Shown: positions 2,121 to 10,354 of the stretch, in pieces
Layout: each line of letters starts with the position of its first letter
Position numbering within the stretch: the first letter of the stretch is position 1
Sequence record: PP400782
Strand: one strand, 5' to 3'
Length of the DNA: 64,000 bases
DNA from: Escherichia phage FL31
Position numbers and translations under genes: made by a program
Notes under the pieces: model-generated
Told to the model about the DNA's origin: nothing
What the model saw: only the letters and a program-made list of their open reading frames with translations
Database searches by the model: none

Positions 2121-3254
<1,134 letters not shown>

Positions 3255-3270: not shown

Positions 3271-3300
3271 ATTGTACCACAATCCTTGTGGTATGTAAAC
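3271..3300 (-). promoter_or_regulatory. early promoter-like element (-35 GTTTAC, -10 TACAAT)
   Basis: Minus strand GTTTACataccacaaggattgtgGTACAAT upstream of the RNA ligase start. Confidence 0.45.
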
Positions 3301-3710
3301 TACTTTTTCTTATGTTGGATATTCCAAGGCGGGTTGAACTTTTTGATAAAAAGCGGTTCTTCAAGGTCCATTGTTGCGATGGTCATTGAACCAAGTTCGT
3401 TGGTGACTGAAAGGTCAAAACATTGGCGGGCCCAGAATTCAACCTTTTTGCCTTGCATTAAGGCATCCAAAATCATAAGTGATTTTCTTGAATCTGAAGT
3501 CTGGTCTTTTCGATTTATGGCTGTTCGATAATAGTTAATGCGTTTCTTTAAATTCTTGGTTTTACCAATATACACAAGTTCGTCATCTATAGCAATAGCA
3601 TATATGACATTTTTCTTATTAGGGACATCAACTGTTTTAATTGTTGCATCTTCTAATAGCTCCAATTCTGTATATTTAATAAAGGAATATTCGGCGGCGA
3701 TATCTTTCAT
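3300..3710 (-). CDS. denA: endonuclease II (DenA), GIY-YIG-like nuclease
   Basis: 136 aa; VYIGKTKNLKKRINYY motif; position downstream of nrdB as in T4. Confidence 0.85.
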   Translation of the reverse strand: MKDIAAEYSFIKYTELELLEDATIKTVDVPNKKNVIYAIAIDDELVYIGKTKNLKKRINYYRTAINRKDQTSDSRKSLMILDALMQGKKVEFWARQCFDLSVTNELGSMTIATMDLEEPLFIKKFNPPWNIQHKKK

Positions 3711-3736: not shown

Positions 3737-4258
3737 TTAGAAATATTTTTTGTATGAATTGATTACATTTTGGTCTACATCATTATCAATTTGTGCGACA
3801 AGATAAGAACTGATTTCAACTTCCTGAGGAGCTGCTTGAACTAAATCAGAGTTCAGATATTCACGAATCCAAGGATACGGATGCTTGGTCGGAGCATCAG
3901 TAATTGGACATGGCAAACCACACTGTTTCATACGAGACACAGTCAAGTAATCAACAAAAGCACACATACTCTGCGTATTGATACCTGGACATGTACCATC
4001 TTTAAAGAGGTGTGCAGCCCATTCCTTCTCTTGACTATTTACTTCCATAAAAATGTCAACTGCTTCTTGTTCACATTCTTTAGCAATTTGAACCCACTCA
4101 TCACCGTCAGTACCAGATTGAAGTTGACGGATAATGTACTGAGTACCCTTGAGATGGAGTTGTTCGTCACGAGCAATGAACTTCATAATCTTTGCATTAC
4201 CTTCCATAATTTCCATGTTCTTATGGAAGTTAAAGGTACCGTTATGTTCGATTGAGCT
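3737..4258 (-). CDS. nrdB: ribonucleotide reductase small subunit NrdB, exon 2 (5' boundary approximate)
   Basis: MEGNAKI...ARDEQLHL and C-terminal region match NrdB; reading frame open upstream to the predicted 3' splice site. Confidence 0.75.
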   Translation of the reverse strand, partial: SSIEHNGTFNFHKNMEIMEGNAKIMKFIARDEQLHLKGTQYIIRQLQSGTDGDEWVQIAKECEQEAVDIFMEVNSQEKEWAAHLFKDGTCPGINTQSMCAFVDYLTVSRMKQCGLPCPITDAPTKHPYPWIREYLNSDLVQAAPQEVEISSYLVAQIDNDVDQNVINSYKKYF

Positions 4259-4375
4259 CGCTAATTCTCAACCCGTTCTCTTATGAACTGCTACATATTA
4301 CTATGCAGACCAGACTATATCACAATCCCAGAGGGATTCTCCCCATTTCGAGTCGCTTGACCCTACGTCCGAAGA

Positions 4376-5185
4376 CTAGTCGTTGAACCTTGCTTTGCAA
4401 TTGTCGCCGTGCCATCGTTTATATGTTGATGGTGATAAATCTTTCTTATCACAATATGGACAATTCAATTGAATTCTATTTGGATTTAATTTACATCTAT
4501 CATTATGTTTTAGATAAAATCCAGGACCTTTACCAATGTGACCGCAGAAATCACATGTGATTTCTTTTTGTGCAGGATGGGTTCCGTTCTTAACCATTTC
4601 TAATGTTTTTGCTGATGTTCTTTTCTTATGGTCTTCTGACAAGAAATGATGTGAACCGTCATTTACCCGTTTTGATTGAGTTTCTGACTGCATTTTACCA
4701 CCGCAAAATACATGAGTACCTTCTTTTATAGCTGCAATATTGCGTTCTTTAACTTTTGCAATATGCTCAGCTTGTTGAAAATTATGTATACCTAATGCAA
4801 CTCTATTTAAATTAGATTTACGCTGTATTTCACCGTCTAAAAGATGAAATGTACCATTTTCTATCTTAGATTTAATAGAGGCAATATTTTTAGCTCGTAC
4901 TTCAGGGATATTAAAAATCTGGATTTCTCTAGATTTTGCGGCTTTAGAAGCTAATTCAGAAATTTCTTCAGGAGAATATTTCATTCTAAGCTTTATAGCG
5001 TGACAAGCCTGGTAATCTTTTTGAGCTAAATGTATATCATAATGTTCCTGTATAGAAAGGCACATCAAATTATCTAAATCATTATTTTCACGGTTACCGT
5101 CTTTATGATGGATTTCGTATGTTCTTCCATCAGAATCTTTAGGTATAGGTCCGTTAGCATCTATCCAAATTTTTCTATAGTTCAA
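4376..5185 (-). CDS. intron-encoded HNH homing endonuclease (I-TevIII-like, full length 269 aa)
   Basis: HNH motif EIHHKDGNRENNDLDNLMCLSIQEH; repeated NIAAIK..GTH modules; C-terminal Cys-rich zinc finger; apparent TTG start with AAGAGG SD. Confidence 0.8.
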   Translation of the reverse strand: MNYRKIWIDANGPIPKDSDGRTYEIHHKDGNRENNDLDNLMCLSIQEHYDIHLAQKDYQACHAIKLRMKYSPEEISELASKAAKSREIQIFNIPEVRAKNIASIKSKIENGTFHLLDGEIQRKSNLNRVALGIHNFQQAEHIAKVKERNIAAIKEGTHVFCGGKMQSETQSKRVNDGSHHFLSEDHKKRTSAKTLEMVKNGTHPAQKEITCDFCGHIGKGPGFYLKHNDRCKLNPNRIQLNCPYCDKKDLSPSTYKRWHGDNCKARFND

Positions 5186-5212
5186 TTGTGCATCCTCTTA
5201 AAAGTATAATCA

Positions 5213-5220
5213 TATTTATA
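5213..5220 (-). promoter_or_regulatory. late promoter TATAAATA inside the intron, upstream of the endonuclease ORF
   Basis: Exact TATAAATA on the minus strand about 28 nt upstream of the ORF start. Confidence 0.5.
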
Positions 5221-5334
5221 TTATACTAATTAAAGGTGCAAGCAAAACCTTGGCTGCTAGTTTTCCTATAAAGGACTTTCCAGCAATTAAAGGAGTTTTC
5301 GATAAACGTTACCGTTTAAAGGCGCATTTTACGC

Positions 5335-6018
5335 AAAAGATACATAAAAACGAATAGCTTCTAAGGCATTAATAACGTGTAAACAGAGGTAAAGAGATTT
5401 CATTAAAGCACGTTTAGCTTCGGCTTCTTGTTTAATAGCTCGGTTTAAACGAAAATCAGCATCAGGAGATTCTTTAGCTAGTTCTACAAATTCTTTAGCA
5501 TTTTCCCAATAACGAGTTTTAACCAGAACATCATCGTAATATTTACCTATTGATTCAGCTCGTTTCATGATTGCTTCGTCTAATACAATCTCATCAAATA
5601 CCTTAGATGGATCGGTATAAAGATTTCGCATAATATGAGTGTACGAACGAGAGTGAATAGTTTCACTGAATGTCCATGTTGCAACCCACGTATCTAATGA
5701 AGGGTCGGAAATCAGTGCCATAAGTACCGCAGATGGGGCCCTGCCTTGGATAGAATCTAATAATGATTGATACTTAAGATTGTTTGTAAAGATGTCCTGT
5801 TGGAACTGAGGAAGCTTATTGAACTGCGCAGAGTCCAACATCAAGTTTACCTCTTCTGGGCGCCAGAAAAACGACAATTGCTTTTCAATAAGTTCTTCAA
5901 AAACTTTATGTCGCTGAATATCATAACGTGCGAGGCCAAGACCAGAACCAAAGAACATTGGTTCATTCAAAACATCGACTTGTTGTGTGTTAAAAACTGT
6001 ACTCATTATATTTCTCAC
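5335..6018 (-). CDS. nrdB: ribonucleotide reductase small subunit NrdB, exon 1 (3' boundary approximate)
   Basis: Class Ia R2 N-terminal region ending ...LHVINALEAIRFYVSF; track ORF stops just inside the intron. Confidence 0.8.
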
Positions 6019-6060
6019 TTAGTTATTAACTCATCCATGAGTAAATTATAATCAAAAGTC

Positions 6061-8343
6061 TTAAAGCTTACAAGCAGAACAATCTTCAGCTTTAGGTGTT
6101 TCTAATTCATAGTCATCTGTACCTGACCCATCACGGGTGTTATGATAGTAGAGGTTTTTTCCGCCAAAGTACCAGAAGTAAAGCAGATCGTCAAGCATTA
6201 CTGACATTGGCACTTTACCTTTCTCAAATACTGCAGGGTCATAGTAAGTATTAGCAGAAGCAGATTGGCACACCCATTTCAACATGATAGCAACTTGGGT
6301 CAAATAAGGTTTATTACCTTTCTTAGCAAGTTTCCACGCGTAGTCGTAAAGACTCATGTTATGTTCTATATTAGGAACAACCTGTCGGAAGTTGCCTTCT
6401 TTAGATTCTTTAATACTTACTGGACCACGTGGGGGCTCAATCCCGTTTGTAGAGTTCGATACTTGACTGCTTGACTCACAAGGCATGAGTGCAGACAACG
6501 TTGAGTTACGAATTCCATGTTCTTTGAGTTCAGCTCGAAGTTCTTCCCAGTCACAGACATAGTTCGGGGCTGCGATTTGGTCAATCTTTTTATTGTACCA
6601 GTCGATAGGTAATTCGCCTCTAGACCATTTAGTGTCTGAATAATACTCACAAGGTCCTTTTTCTTTGGCGAGTTTGATTGATGCTTTGATAAGGCCATAT
6701 TGCAATCTCTCGAACAATTCATGGGTCAAATCGTTAGCGTCTTCATATGAAGCAAAGTTAGAAGCTAACCATGCAGCATAGTTCGTCACACCAACACCAA
6801 GATTACGACGCTTTTTAGCTTTTAAAGCTTCTGGAACCGGATAATCTTGATAGTCTAACAGGTTATCAAGTGCACGTACTTGTACTTCAGCAAGTTCATT
6901 AATTTTATCTTGGTCTTGCCAATCAAATTTATCTAATACAAAAGCAGATAATGTGCATAAACCAATTTCAGCATCAGGACCATTCACATCATTAGTTGGA
7001 ATAGCGATTTCACAACATAAGTTACTCTGACGAATTGGAGCTTTTTCACGAATAAACGGAGTGTAGTTATTCGTGTTATCAACAAACTGTGGATAAATTC
7101 GAGCAGTGCCAGAACGTTCAGTCATGAACAATTCAAAGAGTTCTAGTGCTTTGATTCTTTTCTTTCTGATTGTTGGGTCTTTTTCAGCTTTCTCATAAAG
7201 CTCACGGAATTTATCTTGATCTTCAAAGAACGAGTAGTATAGTTCGCCTGACATTTCGTGAGGGCTAAATAAAGTAATATAATCATTTTTACCAAGGCGT
7301 TCCATCATAAGGTCATTAATCTGAATTCCGTAGTCCATATGTCGAATACGGTTTTCATCCACGCCTTTGTTATTTTTCAGAACTAATAGGTTCTCTACTT
7401 CTAAGTGCCACATCGGATAATACGCTGTAGCAGCACCACCACGAATACCGCCTTGAGAACAAGATTTTACTGCAGTTTGGAAATGTTTCCAGAATGGAAT
7501 AACACCTGTATGTCGAACTTCACCCATACCGATCTTAGAACCTTCTGCACGAAGCATACCAACGTTGATACCAATACCAGCTCGTTTAGAAATATATTCA
7601 ATAATTGATGCTGAAGTTTTGTTAATAGATTTTAACGAATCACCGGCTTCAATAACTACACAACTAGAGAACTGGCGAGTCGGAGTACGAGCACCTGCCA
7701 TAATTGGAGTTGGCAATGAAACTTGATGAGTAGAAACGGCATCATAAAAACGAATAATATGTTTCAAACGGTCATGAGTTTCGTCTTGGTGTAAGGCCAT
7801 ACCAATAGCCATGATAGCAAACTGCGGAGTTTCATAAATCTTACCAGTTGTTTTATCTTTAACCAGGTATTTTTCTTTAAGCTGCATAGCACCAGCATAA
7901 GTCAGGTCAAAGTCTCGTTCATGTTTAATCTGTGAATCGAGATAAATGATTTCTTCTGCTGAATATTGAGACAACAGCTCAGGGTCATATTTGCCTTCAT
8001 TAACACAGTAAGAAATATGGTCGATAAAAGCAGGTGGTTCAAACTGCTCATATACATCTTTACGAAGTGCAAACATTAGACCTTTGGCGGCGACATACTG
8101 ATAATCAGGTTCTTCGACAGAAATCGAGTTAGCTGCAACTTTAATACAAATCTTCTGAATATCTTTGGTGCTCATCCCATCAACCAGATGAGTCTTAATT
8201 TCTTCATACAATTCGTATGGGTCAATTTGTGTTCCTTCACATTGCCAAGTTAAGACTTGAATAATTTTCTGTGCATCAAAATTTTGTGATACACCACTGC
8301 TCTTAGTTACTTGCATATATTCCTCGGATAGATTGATAGACAT
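6061..8343 (-). CDS. nrdA: ribonucleotide reductase large subunit NrdA (class Ia)
   Basis: 760 aa; catalytic Cys region NLCCEIAIP and C-terminal tail consistent with NrdA. Confidence 0.95.
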   Translation of the reverse strand: MSINLSEEYMQVTKSSGVSQNFDAQKIIQVLTWQCEGTQIDPYELYEEIKTHLVDGMSTKDIQKICIKVAANSISVEEPDYQYVAAKGLMFALRKDVYEQFEPPAFIDHISYCVNEGKYDPELLSQYSAEEIIYLDSQIKHERDFDLTYAGAMQLKEKYLVKDKTTGKIYETPQFAIMAIGMALHQDETHDRLKHIIRFYDAVSTHQVSLPTPIMAGARTPTRQFSSCVVIEAGDSLKSINKTSASIIEYISKRAGIGINVGMLRAEGSKIGMGEVRHTGVIPFWKHFQTAVKSCSQGGIRGGAATAYYPMWHLEVENLLVLKNNKGVDENRIRHMDYGIQINDLMMERLGKNDYITLFSPHEMSGELYYSFFEDQDKFRELYEKAEKDPTIRKKRIKALELFELFMTERSGTARIYPQFVDNTNNYTPFIREKAPIRQSNLCCEIAIPTNDVNGPDAEIGLCTLSAFVLDKFDWQDQDKINELAEVQVRALDNLLDYQDYPVPEALKAKKRRNLGVGVTNYAAWLASNFASYEDANDLTHELFERLQYGLIKASIKLAKEKGPCEYYSDTKWSRGELPIDWYNKKIDQIAAPNYVCDWEELRAELKEHGIRNSTLSALMPCESSSQVSNSTNGIEPPRGPVSIKESKEGNFRQVVPNIEHNMSLYDYAWKLAKKGNKPYLTQVAIMLKWVCQSASANTYYDPAVFEKGKVPMSVMLDDLLYFWYFGGKNLYYHNTRDGSGTDDYELETPKAEDCSACKL

Positions 8344-8402
8344 TACTCCAAACGGGATAGTATTTATCCCGTTAATTTATTATACACTTTTAAACTGAAG
8401 CG

Positions 8403-8657
8403 TTAATTATTCTTAGCAATAATTTCTTTGTATTCTTTAGGAGTCAAGACCGTAATATCGAAATAAACCAATGGTTCTTTTTCCATACCGTAACCACCAC
8501 AAAATTCGCGATATTCATAAATTCGTTCGTGTGAATGGCAAATGAATCGTTCACCTTTAACTGTGATTTCACTATTTGGTGAAGGGATATCCAGTTCACT
8601 TGGATTTTTCATTTCAAAAATTGTGGTGCCATATGAATTAATAAAACGTAAAATCAT
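8403..8657 (-). CDS. hypothetical protein (84 aa)
   Basis: ORF between td and nrdA. Confidence 0.4.
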   Translation of the reverse strand: MILRFINSYGTTIFEMKNPSELDIPSPNSEITVKGERFICHSHERIYEYREFCGGYGMEKEPLVYFDITVLTPKEYKEIIAKNN

Positions 8658-8658
8658 T

Positions 8659-10354
<1,696 letters not shown>

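Follow-up and report, generated by a model that had tools for sequence, protein, structure and literature searches.

We asked what divides nrdB in Escherichia phage FL31 (sequence record PP400782), and how the dividing sequence came to be there. The window analyzed here is a 64,000-nucleotide stretch of this genome, and every feature described below lies on its minus strand. We found that nrdB is split by a 1,091-nt intervening sequence at 5330..4240. The evidence makes it nearly certain that this sequence is a full-length RB3-type nrdB group I intron with a functional I-TevIII gene in its P6a loop, residing in an RB69-like (Mosigvirus) host.

The element is already known: it is the textbook mobile nrdB intron, and dozens of phage genomes carry annotated, near-identical copies. 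Work on the nrdB intron of T-even phages, on the enzyme it encodes, and on how it is regulated and patchily distributed goes back to the late 1980s, and Eddy and Gold reportedly described the RB3 element in 1991, in Genes Dev 5:1032. The FL31 copy adds little beyond this known element, and its modest value lies in two points. It is a clear example of how ORF-bearing phage introns escape covariance-model scans run at curated thresholds, which also illustrates why nrdB appears as two separate genes in many records. It probably also provides a tidy natural case of inter-genus phage homing with exon co-conversion.

Splice sites and group I fold

Exon 1 of nrdB (5331..6006, minus strand, 676 nt) can be aligned with the nrdB genes of T4, RB3, RB69, and ZQ3, and ends in ...UUUGCGU, with U at position -1. 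Exon 2 (3737..4239, minus strand, 503 nt including the stop codon) begins with GUACCUUUAAC. The intron between them (4240..5330, minus strand) begins with AAAAUGCGCC and ends in ...ACAUAACG, its last base being G4240. The splice sites are U(5331)/A(5330) and G(4240)/G(4239). Removal of the intron yields a 1,179-nt coding sequence for a 392-aa NrdB that is colinear, without gaps, with the intronless nrdB of ZQ3. The spliced junction reads ...FYVSFA-C-TFNFHKNMEIMEGN... (FYVSFAC joined to TFNF) and is identical in the NrdB proteins of T4 and RB3. The identical boundary rule applied to T4 returns exactly the annotated 598-nt T4 intron. Neither the exon 1 ORF nor the exon 2 ORF has a proper start or end of its own at the junction.

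A first-pass annotation of this DNA had described an NrdB frame interrupted by about 1.08 kb, and the 1,091-nt intron on the minus strand agrees with that description. The annotation placed the limits at 4259-5334; the location of the split stands, and the ends do not, the interval being 4 nt too long at the 5′ end and 19 nt too short at the 3′ end. Resumption of exon 2 at 4258 (...SSIEHNGTFNF) would add six residues found in no NrdB homologue and would have no preceding G. We rejected this boundary on both grounds; 4240/4239 reproduces both the 598-nt T4 intron and the ZQ3-colinear sequence. We also rejected an in-frame splice at GCG/.../GGT (A-G-T), which would eliminate the U-G pair as well as the conserved Cys.

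A search of the whole window with Rfam at the gathering threshold gave no match. A permissive scan returned Intron_gpI at 35.4 bits (4291..4527). This alignment misplaces the 5′ helices into ORF sequence and was set aside as a description of the fold in favor of manual mapping, for which a natural intron lacking the ORF served as a check. The segment GACUA...GAUAUAGUC aligns to the Rfam Intron_gpI consensus. The window intron falls below the gathering score because of the 810-nt ORF that sits in L6a. A natural ORF-less intron, that of PD112, scores 68.6 bits on RF00028 (Intron_gpI; gathering score 50), and its core differs from the window core solely by a 2-nt deletion. The nrdB and td introns of T4, which are experimentally proven, likewise gave no gathering-level match in the same kind of search, and the Rfam miss therefore carries little weight.

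The manually mapped intron is of the T4/RB3 nrdB type, with an IA2-like architecture that includes P7.1, P7.2, P9.1, and P9.2. P1 (5322..5334) pairs exon GCGU and an intron A with UGCGC and sets a U-G wobble at the 5′ splice site, where U5331, the last exon base, pairs with G5325. P2 is a hairpin (UAAACG-GUAA-CGUUUA, 5303..5318) with two compensatory pair changes (S16, HY03). The 5′ strand of P3 (5295..5290), P4 (5285..5280 with 5260..5255), and the 5′ strands of P6 and P6a (CC and GUUUUGC, 5242..5253) were assigned by fold mapping and by pairing in the variants. P5 (5275..5272 with 5267..5264) carries one compensatory change, from U-A to A-U in HY03. The 3′ strands of P6a and P6 (GCAAAGC and GG, 4388..4398) lie within the final ORF codons; at its 3′ end, the ORF extends with these codons and a UAG stop into P6a′, P6′, and P7.

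The 3′ half of the catalytic core (4313..4381) contains the 5′ strand of P7 (4381..4377), P7.1 (4376..4367), P7.2 (4363..4350), the 3′ strand of P3 (4344..4339), P8 (4337..4325), and the 3′ strand of P7 (4317..4313), with P3 and P7 forming the usual pseudoknot. P9 (4308..4291), in which an A-U pair is replaced by G-C in T4, a20, and HY03 through compensatory change, is followed by P9.1 (4288..4275) and P9.2 (4273..4250).

An unconstrained minimum free energy fold of the ORF-deleted intron recovered P1, P3, P4, P5, P6, P6a, P7.1, P7.2, P8, P9, P9.1, and P9.2. Among six distinct variants, standard pairs occupy 539 of 539 pair cells, compared to 37-45% in slid controls. Compensatory double changes affect four pairs, in P2, P5, and P9, within a sample of six closely related sequences in which most pairs are invariant. 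With its conserved P1-P9 elements, P3/P7 pseudoknot, and J8/7-P7 core, the intervening sequence is a group I intron. The fold that had been anticipated at first pass could thus be mapped from P1 to P9.2, with all pairs holding in the six variants.

The I-TevIII gene and its expression signals

The P6a loop contains an I-TevIII homing endonuclease gene (4376..5185, minus strand) that encodes 269 aa from a TTG start without interruption. The protein matches Pfam HNH_3 over residues 4-48 (48.7 bits, cut-off 24.8; 6e-13), and the H-N-H residues H26, H27, N39, and H48 are all present. Two C-terminal zinc fingers with the motif CX2CX12-13HX3C, as defined in PMC1865063, are intact (C211/C214/H227/C231 and C242/C245/H259/C263). 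The Pfam zinc-finger models left these fingers undetected (zf-H2C2_2, E = 0.8). In RB3 I-TevIII, mutagenesis has shown residues H26, H27, N39, H48, C211, C214, C242, and C245 to be important (PMC1865063).

The protein is identical to RB3 I-TevIII at 268 of 269 residues, and the RB3 gene has the same L6a position and the same annotated TTG start. The single difference is Y23 in place of D23, three residues ahead of H26. Y23 is the majority state (a20, PTE-Eco05, Bp7, S16, and HY03), and D23 of RB3 is the outlier. Sequence comparison identifies the ORF, encoded within the nrdB intron, as an I-TevIII ortholog of the characterized RB3 protein, and its dN/dS values (0.11 versus S16 and 0.07 versus HY03) indicate purifying selection. 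Pfam also matched residues 74-114 to FlgM (26.2 bits), a hit that we judged spurious for a linker or repeat region of the endonuclease. A PDB sequence search returned no solved relative of the ORF product.

The TTG at 5185..5183 is the first possible start codon past an in-frame TAA four codons upstream. The ATG in AAGAGGATG was rejected as a start; it opens a frame of only three codons (ATG CAC AAT TGA) and abuts the Shine-Dalgarno sequence. The next in-frame ATG (M41) was also rejected and would remove H26, H27, and N39. The Shine-Dalgarno sequence AAGAGG (5194..5199) lies 8 nt upstream of the TTG and is invariant in all aligned variants. An exact match to the T4-type late promoter consensus, TATAAATA (5213..5220), is found 27 nt upstream of the TTG. 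All ORF-bearing variants, RB3 included, retain the start codon, Shine-Dalgarno sequence, and promoter. The first pass had proposed a full-length I-TevIII-like HNH/zinc-finger ORF of 269 aa, an exact late promoter at 5213-5220, and a TTG start after an AAGAGG; each of these proposals proved correct, and translation gave an uninterrupted frame.

The window contains 6 copies of the promoter motif against 7.9 expected, so there is no enrichment and the count is no evidence. What gives this site weight is its position, its conservation in aligned introns, and transcript mapping published for T4. The motif is kept in seven other aligned ORF-bearing introns (six full-length introns and the deleted form in T4), and the ORF-less intron of PD112 has a degraded version, TATAAATG. 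According to PMC2988022 (its reference 48), primer extension has located both late and middle promoters for the intron ORFs of T4.

We also identified a predicted RNA hairpin in L6a (5189..5240, minus strand), which the first pass had missed. Its CCUUU pairs with the Shine-Dalgarno sequence (AGAGG), and the late promoter motif lies in its loop. The hairpin has a dG of -14.9 kcal/mol (z -3.43), a stability equaled by 0 of 200 shuffles, and 18 of 18 pairs hold in six variants. RNA beginning downstream of the late promoter is predicted to be unstructured (-0.7 kcal/mol). Folding predictions indicate that the hairpin forms only in transcripts begun upstream of the late promoter. T4 intron endonucleases are regulated by a late promoter combined with a hairpin that sequesters the ribosome-binding site, an arrangement experimentally established for I-TevI (PMC2988022); the regulatory model is also presented in PMC2790892.

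Just upstream of the late promoter, a putative I-TevIII operator (5228..5247, minus strand) matches the homing site (-8..+12 across the exon junction) at 17 of 20 positions, a level that 0 of 500 shuffles reach. A homing-site-like operator has been proposed for I-TevIII (PMC2988022).

These features are consistent with the following scheme. Transcription of nrdB through the intron would produce an RNA that adopts the P1-P9.2 fold and excises itself, restoring NrdB; the fold and the restored frame were obtained here, and GTP-dependent self-splicing is extrapolated from the T4 and RB3 introns, for which the literature documents it. In long early and middle transcripts, the Shine-Dalgarno sequence would be locked in the hairpin (5240..5189) and, following the published T4 model (PMC2988022), little endonuclease would be made. 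Late in infection, transcription from TATAAATA would generate RNAs that lack the 5′ arm of the hairpin, leaving the Shine-Dalgarno sequence free for translation from the weak TTG codon. The motif and structure come from the window sequence, and the late transcript start and the TTG effect are inferred. It is plausible that the TTG start itself lowers expression. Low and late expression, as suggested at first pass, would agree in outline with published T4 intron endonuclease regulation (PMC2988022). Finally, enzyme bound at the 17/20 copy of its homing site by the promoter may repress its own transcription, as proposed in the literature.

Probable homing into an RB69-like genome

The genome around nrdB is RB69-like (Mosigvirus). 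Over the neighboring 20 kb, identity to RB69 is 96-97%, and RB69 has no interruption in either nrdB or td. The td gene of the window (8659..9519, minus strand, 286 aa) is also uninterrupted, and the first-pass statement that it is intron-free holds. Within this background, a minimal imported block (4217..5500, minus strand; outer limits 5508 and 4209) comprises the intron flanked by some 170 nt from exon 1 and some 23 nt from exon 2. This block is RB3/PD112-like, and nrdB is otherwise Mosigvirus-type. Of the 65 exon mismatches to ZQ3, an intronless Mosigvirus, 64 lie inside -170..+23, and all exon positions but one are identical outside it. In comparison with RB3, only 4 of 198 exon mismatches lie inside the same interval. 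Judged from this pattern, the -170..+23 tract is a clear co-conversion scar of homing.

RB3 I-TevIII cuts intronless nrdB and drives homing (PMC1865063). The enzyme is predicted to combine an N-terminal H-N-H nuclease domain with a C-terminal, two-zinc-finger domain for DNA binding and dimerization. Based on the RB3 biochemistry (PMC1865063), it would bind intronless nrdB across the insertion site and cut 14 and 16 bp upstream. Double-strand-break repair off an intron-bearing genome would then copy in the intron together with adjacent exon sequence. We consider it likely that an RB3/PD112-like Tequatrovirus intron was copied in this way into an RB69/JS09-like Mosigvirus nrdB, leaving a natural record of cross-genus homing with both tract ends located within 9 nt (5500-5508 and 4209-4217). 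Between -14 and +8, five positions distinguish the Mosigvirus-type homing site from that of the RB3 type. If the cross-genus reading is right, I-TevIII tolerates such a recipient site in nature, and the tract provides a natural measure of co-conversion length and asymmetry (about 170 nt upstream and about 25 nt downstream).

The intron could have arrived otherwise, through homologous recombination in a mixed infection or through trans-homing by a free-standing endonuclease (MobE), but we regard these routes as improbable. In T4, MobE nicks the 5′ region of nrdB, which mobilizes the nrdB intron in trans (PMC2790892). General recombination commonly makes the genomes of T4-like phages mosaic, and the intron variants are themselves mosaic, with a20 and the window differing at the intron 3′ end. 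However, the imported block is short, centered on the intron (-170..+23), and encloses the I-TevIII cut site at -14/-16, and the element carries an intact endonuclease gene. MobE-type trans-homing appears unlikely from the sequence: the 5′ 500 nt of nrdB, the MobE target, differ from intronless Mosigvirus only once, and the window has no mobE between nrdA and nrdB.

There is a still smaller chance that the intron splices but its I-TevIII is inactive or unexpressed, making it a non-autonomous, passive passenger as in T4, where a defunct version is seen to persist (PMC2790892). D23Y is the sole change from the tested RB3 enzyme and falls three residues before catalytic H26, and a TTG start with a sequestered Shine-Dalgarno sequence predicts low expression. 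Yet each of the five other full-length variants examined has Y23, among them S16, with an ORF whose DNA has diverged by about 13%. Every mutationally defined residue is intact, and the dN/dS values are 0.07-0.11. Moreover, the same TTG, Shine-Dalgarno sequence, and promoter are found in RB3, whose intron homes experimentally (PMC1865063).

We give practically no credence to a locus without an intron, in which a truly split nrdB would encode two polypeptides and have acquired a free-standing HNH gene, or in which the interruption would be an assembly artefact: many records do annotate two nrdB CDSs plus a separate endonuclease, and the window has no gathering-level Rfam match, but the locus has a complete group I architecture with covariation and an ORF-less homologue that passes RF00028, it is 99.6% identical to an intron with demonstrated splicing and homing (PMC1865063; cites Eddy & Gold 1991), the insertion recurs at the same nucleotide in at least 84 independent phage records, and the exon ORFs are improper alone.

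Comparison with known intron systems

An RB3-type intron with a functional I-TevIII gene is the reading that we carry into comparison with known systems. The window intron is identical to the RB3 nrdB intron (KM606994, AY262130) at 1087 of 1091 positions (99.6%); such identity to a characterized element over 1,091 nt places the intron and its ORF far beyond chance. The RB3 nrdB intron and I-TevIII were the subject of Robbins et al. 2007 (NAR 35:1589; PMC1865063). RB3 shares with the window the insertion site, the 1,091-nt length, the 269-aa ORF, the TTG, the Shine-Dalgarno sequence, the late promoter, and the hairpin. The two differ in backbone, which is Tequatrovirus in RB3 and RB69-like (Mosigvirus) in the window, and their exons are 80-85% identical outside the co-converted tract. 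Residue 23 is D in RB3 and Y in the window. Unlike RB3, the window phage has no mobE upstream of nrdB.

T4 (NC_000866) contains the same intron at the same site with the same core helices (99% identity over the 5′ 147 nt and 96% over the 3′ 164 nt) and has G-C variants in P9. The T4 intron is 598 nt long and lacks about 491 nt of ORF sequence. As the first pass had noted, the T4 endonuclease is truncated; its annotated 97-aa product is without the H-N-H domain and inactive. The T4 nrdB intron is mobile only with the help of MobE (PMC2790892).

In at least 84 phage records, 80% or more of the intron is present at the same insertion nucleotide; of the 128 records that match, 51 show at least 99% identity over the matching part. 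Carriers of the full-length intron include Escherichia phages a20, NRG-P0074, JM17, and vB_EcoM_PTE-Eco05, Shigella phage JK45, Yersinia phage phiD1, and Salmonella phage S16. PTE-Eco05 and a20 have Mosigvirus-type exons and the same co-converted tract as the window, although the 3′ end of the a20 intron is T4-like, unlike that of the window. Over the whole nrdB region, no record is identical to the window, the best reaching 98.5%.

The T4 td intron with I-TevI and the nrdD intron with I-TevII have the same layout, namely a group I intron in a nucleotide-metabolism gene with an ORF looped out from the core. The td gene of the window, unlike T4 td, is without this intron. The I-TevI and I-TevII introns likewise feature a late/middle promoter, a hairpin at the ribosome-binding site, distant cleavage, and exon co-conversion (PMC2988022). 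I-TevI and I-TevII are GIY-YIG enzymes, with I-TevI acting as a monomer (PMC2988022), whereas I-TevIII is an H-N-H enzyme that forms a dimer and has two zinc fingers.

The nrdB locus and its intron boundaries

Gene order in the window (alc-rnlA-denA-nrdB-nrdA-nrdA.2-td-frd) is that of RB69, and the 20 kb around the locus are 96–97% identical to RB69 and to PTE-Eco05. These similarities place the window in an RB69-like (Mosigvirus) phage. RB69 nrdB and td are both uninterrupted, whereas nrdB in the window is split and td (9519..8659, 286 aa) is a continuous ORF, bearing out the first-pass annotation of td as intron-free. Like td, the flanking genes denA (3710..3300) and rnlA (3245..2121) lie on the minus strand, as does nrdA (8343..6061, ORF-finder limits). 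The true nrdA start is probably the tenth codon of this 760-aa ORF, for a product of 751 aa, the RB69 length. The nrdA–td interval (8344–8660) contains a single small nrdA.2-like ORF (8403–8657), also as in RB69. T4 and RB3 carry free-standing endonuclease gene(s) between nrdA and nrdB; in the window, free-standing endonuclease genes, mobE and nrdB.1 included, are absent from this interval (6007–6060).

The ORF list places the N-terminal 225 residues of NrdB in an ORF ending at about 5331 and the C-terminal piece at 4216..3737, with a 269-aa I-TevIII ORF (5185..4376) between them, all on the minus strand. We aligned the window with RB3, T4, PD112, a20, PTE-Eco05, S16, HY03, and Bp7 and translated the spliced product. 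Together, alignment and translation define a 1,091-nt group I intron (5330..4240, minus strand). Exon 1 ends in UUUGCGU (final U, 5331), the intron ends in AUAACG (final G, 4240), and exon 2 begins with GUACCUUU. The spliced 1,179-nt CDS encodes a 392-aa NrdB that reads ...AIRFYVSFACTFNFHKNMEIMEGNAK... and is gap-free and colinear with the intronless nrdB of the Mosigvirus ZQ3. Applied to T4, the same boundary rule yields a 598-nt intron, exactly as in the T4 two-piece CDS annotation. The split in nrdB recognized in the first-pass annotation thus stands, but the proposed ends (4259–5334) were off by 19 nt and 4 nt.

GenBank records with the intron mostly divide nrdB into two or three CDSs without joining them. 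They also include small spurious intron ORFs, such as a 31-aa ‘hypothetical protein’ over the 3′ core.

Group I fold

No Rfam match in the window reaches the gathering threshold, and a permissive scan gave 35.4 bits (4291..4527) with the 5′ helices forced onto ORF sequence. The T4 nrdB and td introns, both proven, likewise have zero gathering-level matches. By contrast, a 2-nt deletion is the sole core difference between the window intron and the natural 304-nt ORF-less copy in PD112, which reaches 68.6 bits (gathering score, 50). The miss is thus a limitation of the model and not evidence against the fold.

Manual mapping placed P1 through P9.2. On the minus strand, the helices are P1 (5334–5330/5326–5322), P2 (5318–5303), P3 (5295–5290/4344–4339), P4 (5285–5280/5260–5255), P5 (5275–5264), P6 (5253–5252/4389–4388), P6a (5248–5242/4398–4392), P7 (4381–4377/4317–4313), P7.1 (4376–4367), P7.2 (4363–4350), P8 (4337–4325), P9 (4308–4291), P9.1 (4288–4275), and P9.2 (4273–4250). 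The ORF sits in the P6a loop; P6a′, P6′, and the P7 5′ strand share sequence with its final codons and UAG stop. When the ORF was deleted, unconstrained folding of the remaining RNA recovered every mapped helix except P2 and the pseudoknotted P7 (z −2.7). Across six distinct variants, 539/539 pair cells hold standard pairs (slid partners, 37–45%). All eight variable pairs remain paired, four through changes to both partners (P2, 2; P5, 1; P9, 1; slid controls, 0). Since the variants are few and closely related, this pairing and covariation supports the fold but is not proof alone.

For the P7–P9 part of the 3′ core (4240–4390), blastn finds 70–92% matches in the genomes of hundreds of unrelated phages, with hosts including Staphylococcus, Bacillus, Pseudomonas, Vibrio, Pectobacterium, and Campylobacter. 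Many of the matches listed have no underlying annotation or only a protein-coding one, which suggests that many phage group I introns are left unannotated as such.

I-TevIII and its expression signals

The intron is identical to that of the Tequatrovirus RB3 at 1087/1091 positions and the ORF product at 268/269, confirming the earlier interpretation of an I-TevIII-type nrdB intron. Full-length I-TevIII was first found in RB3, and it is the RB3 enzyme that has been characterised. The sole protein difference is Y23 (D23 in RB3); Y23 is the common state, found in a20, PTE-Eco05, Bp7, HY03, and the ~10% diverged S16. The window protein keeps H26, H27, N39, and H48, identified as catalytic by mutagenesis (PMC1865063). 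Two CX2CX12-13HX3C fingers are intact (C211/C214/H227/C231 and C242/C245/H259/C263), and C211, C214, C242, and C245 are required for zinc and DNA binding by mutagenesis (PMC1865063). With a Pfam HNH_3 match at residues 4–48 (48.7 bits), the 269-aa product is the intact HNH/zinc-finger endonuclease initially described. dN/dS values of 0.11 (versus S16) and 0.07 (versus HY03) indicate that selection maintains the ORF.

The T4 endonuclease is truncated, as previously stated: ~491 nt of the ORF are gone, and the 97-aa product lacks the H-N-H domain. This annotated T4 ‘I-TevIII’ (L002:3594-3887) begins at an ATG that is out of frame with the TTG start; it enters the C-terminal frame only past the deletion, whose ends fall in the near-repeat GAAGA(A/C)CATA.

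The linker between the H-N-H and zinc-finger regions (4568–4873, residues ~105–206) contains five ~23-aa repeats that share a G-x-H motif (ENGTFH, ALGIHN, KEGTHV, NDGSHH, KNGTHP). The only Pfam match to the linker region is a marginal FlgM match (residues 74–114, 26.2 bits; cut-off 25), which is probably spurious.

TTG (5185..5183, minus strand), also annotated as the start in RB3, is the first possible start because an in-frame TAA lies four codons upstream. The AAGAGG Shine-Dalgarno sequence (5199..5194, minus strand) is 8 nt 5′ of it. We rejected the next ATG downstream (M41), which would delete the catalytic histidines. An exact late promoter, TATAAATA (5220..5213, minus strand), lies in the loop of a predicted ribosome-binding-site hairpin (5240..5189, minus strand; −14.9 kcal/mol, z −3.43), in which the Shine-Dalgarno sequence is paired with the 5′ arm, CCUUU. 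RNA starting downstream of the promoter is predicted to be unstructured. With 6 late-promoter octamers observed and 7.9 expected, the window shows no enrichment, so the promoter takes its meaning from this hairpin context rather than from octamer counts. The late promoter and the TTG behind its AAGAGG, both noted at first pass, are kept with the hairpin in 7/7 other aligned ORF-bearing introns; in the ORF-less intron of PD112, the promoter is no longer exact and reads TATAAATG. We can reasonably infer that the TTG codon itself damps I-TevIII expression.

Directly upstream of the promoter, 5247..5228 (minus strand) matches the homing site (−8..+12, exon junction) at 17/20 positions (0/500 shuffles) and overlaps both P6a and the hairpin 5′ arm. 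This candidate autorepression operator is consistent with a published proposal for I-TevIII (PMC2988022).

Arrival of the intron and its known relatives

We compared spliced window nrdB with intronless ZQ3 nrdB and spliced RB3 nrdB. Of 65 exon mismatches to ZQ3, 64 fall within −170..+23 of the insertion site, whereas only 4 of 198 mismatches to RB3 do, the others lying from −179 and +32 outward. This pattern indicates that ~170 nt of upstream and ~25 nt of downstream exon arrived with the intron from an RB3/PD112-like donor. The co-conversion tract spans the published I-TevIII cut site at −14/−16 (PMC1865063). Arrival by MobE trans-homing is unlikely: MobE nicks within the first 500 nt of nrdB (PMC2790892), where the window and ZQ3 differ once, and the window has no mobE. 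Five positions (−14 to +8) distinguish the presumed ZQ3-type recipient site from the donor type. The sharply bounded co-conversion tract thus quite likely documents natural cross-genus homing and enzyme tolerance of a variant homing site, a reading of minor interest.

The ORF is flanked by a 7-nt direct repeat, ACAATTG (5183–5189, including the TTG start, and 4398–4404; minus strand). The 304-nt PD112 intron (L005:1501-1804) is exactly the window intron minus one repeat and the 785 nt between, and so has the appearance of a precise ORF deletion mediated by the repeat. The exons of a20 are Mosigvirus-type (~98.5% identical to those of the window), whereas its intron resembles that of T4 over the 3′ 160 nt, with G-C variants in P9 and an ACAT-ACG end; the RB3-like 3′ end of the window intron (4240–4404) differs from a20 at 7 positions. 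Intron variants appear to be mosaics or to have been re-converted following arrival.

Megablast with the intron matched 128 phage records, 84 with at least 80% of the intron covered and 51 with at least 99% identity over the matching part. Eddy and Gold reportedly described the RB3-type nrdB intron with I-TevIII in 1991, and Robbins et al. did so in 2007 (PMC1865063). It has since been reviewed (PMC2988022). All defining features checkable by sequence are present, identifying the element as this intron in a Mosigvirus backbone. The element is not new: the full-length intron in such a backbone is already known, having been deposited for a20 and PTE-Eco05 among others.
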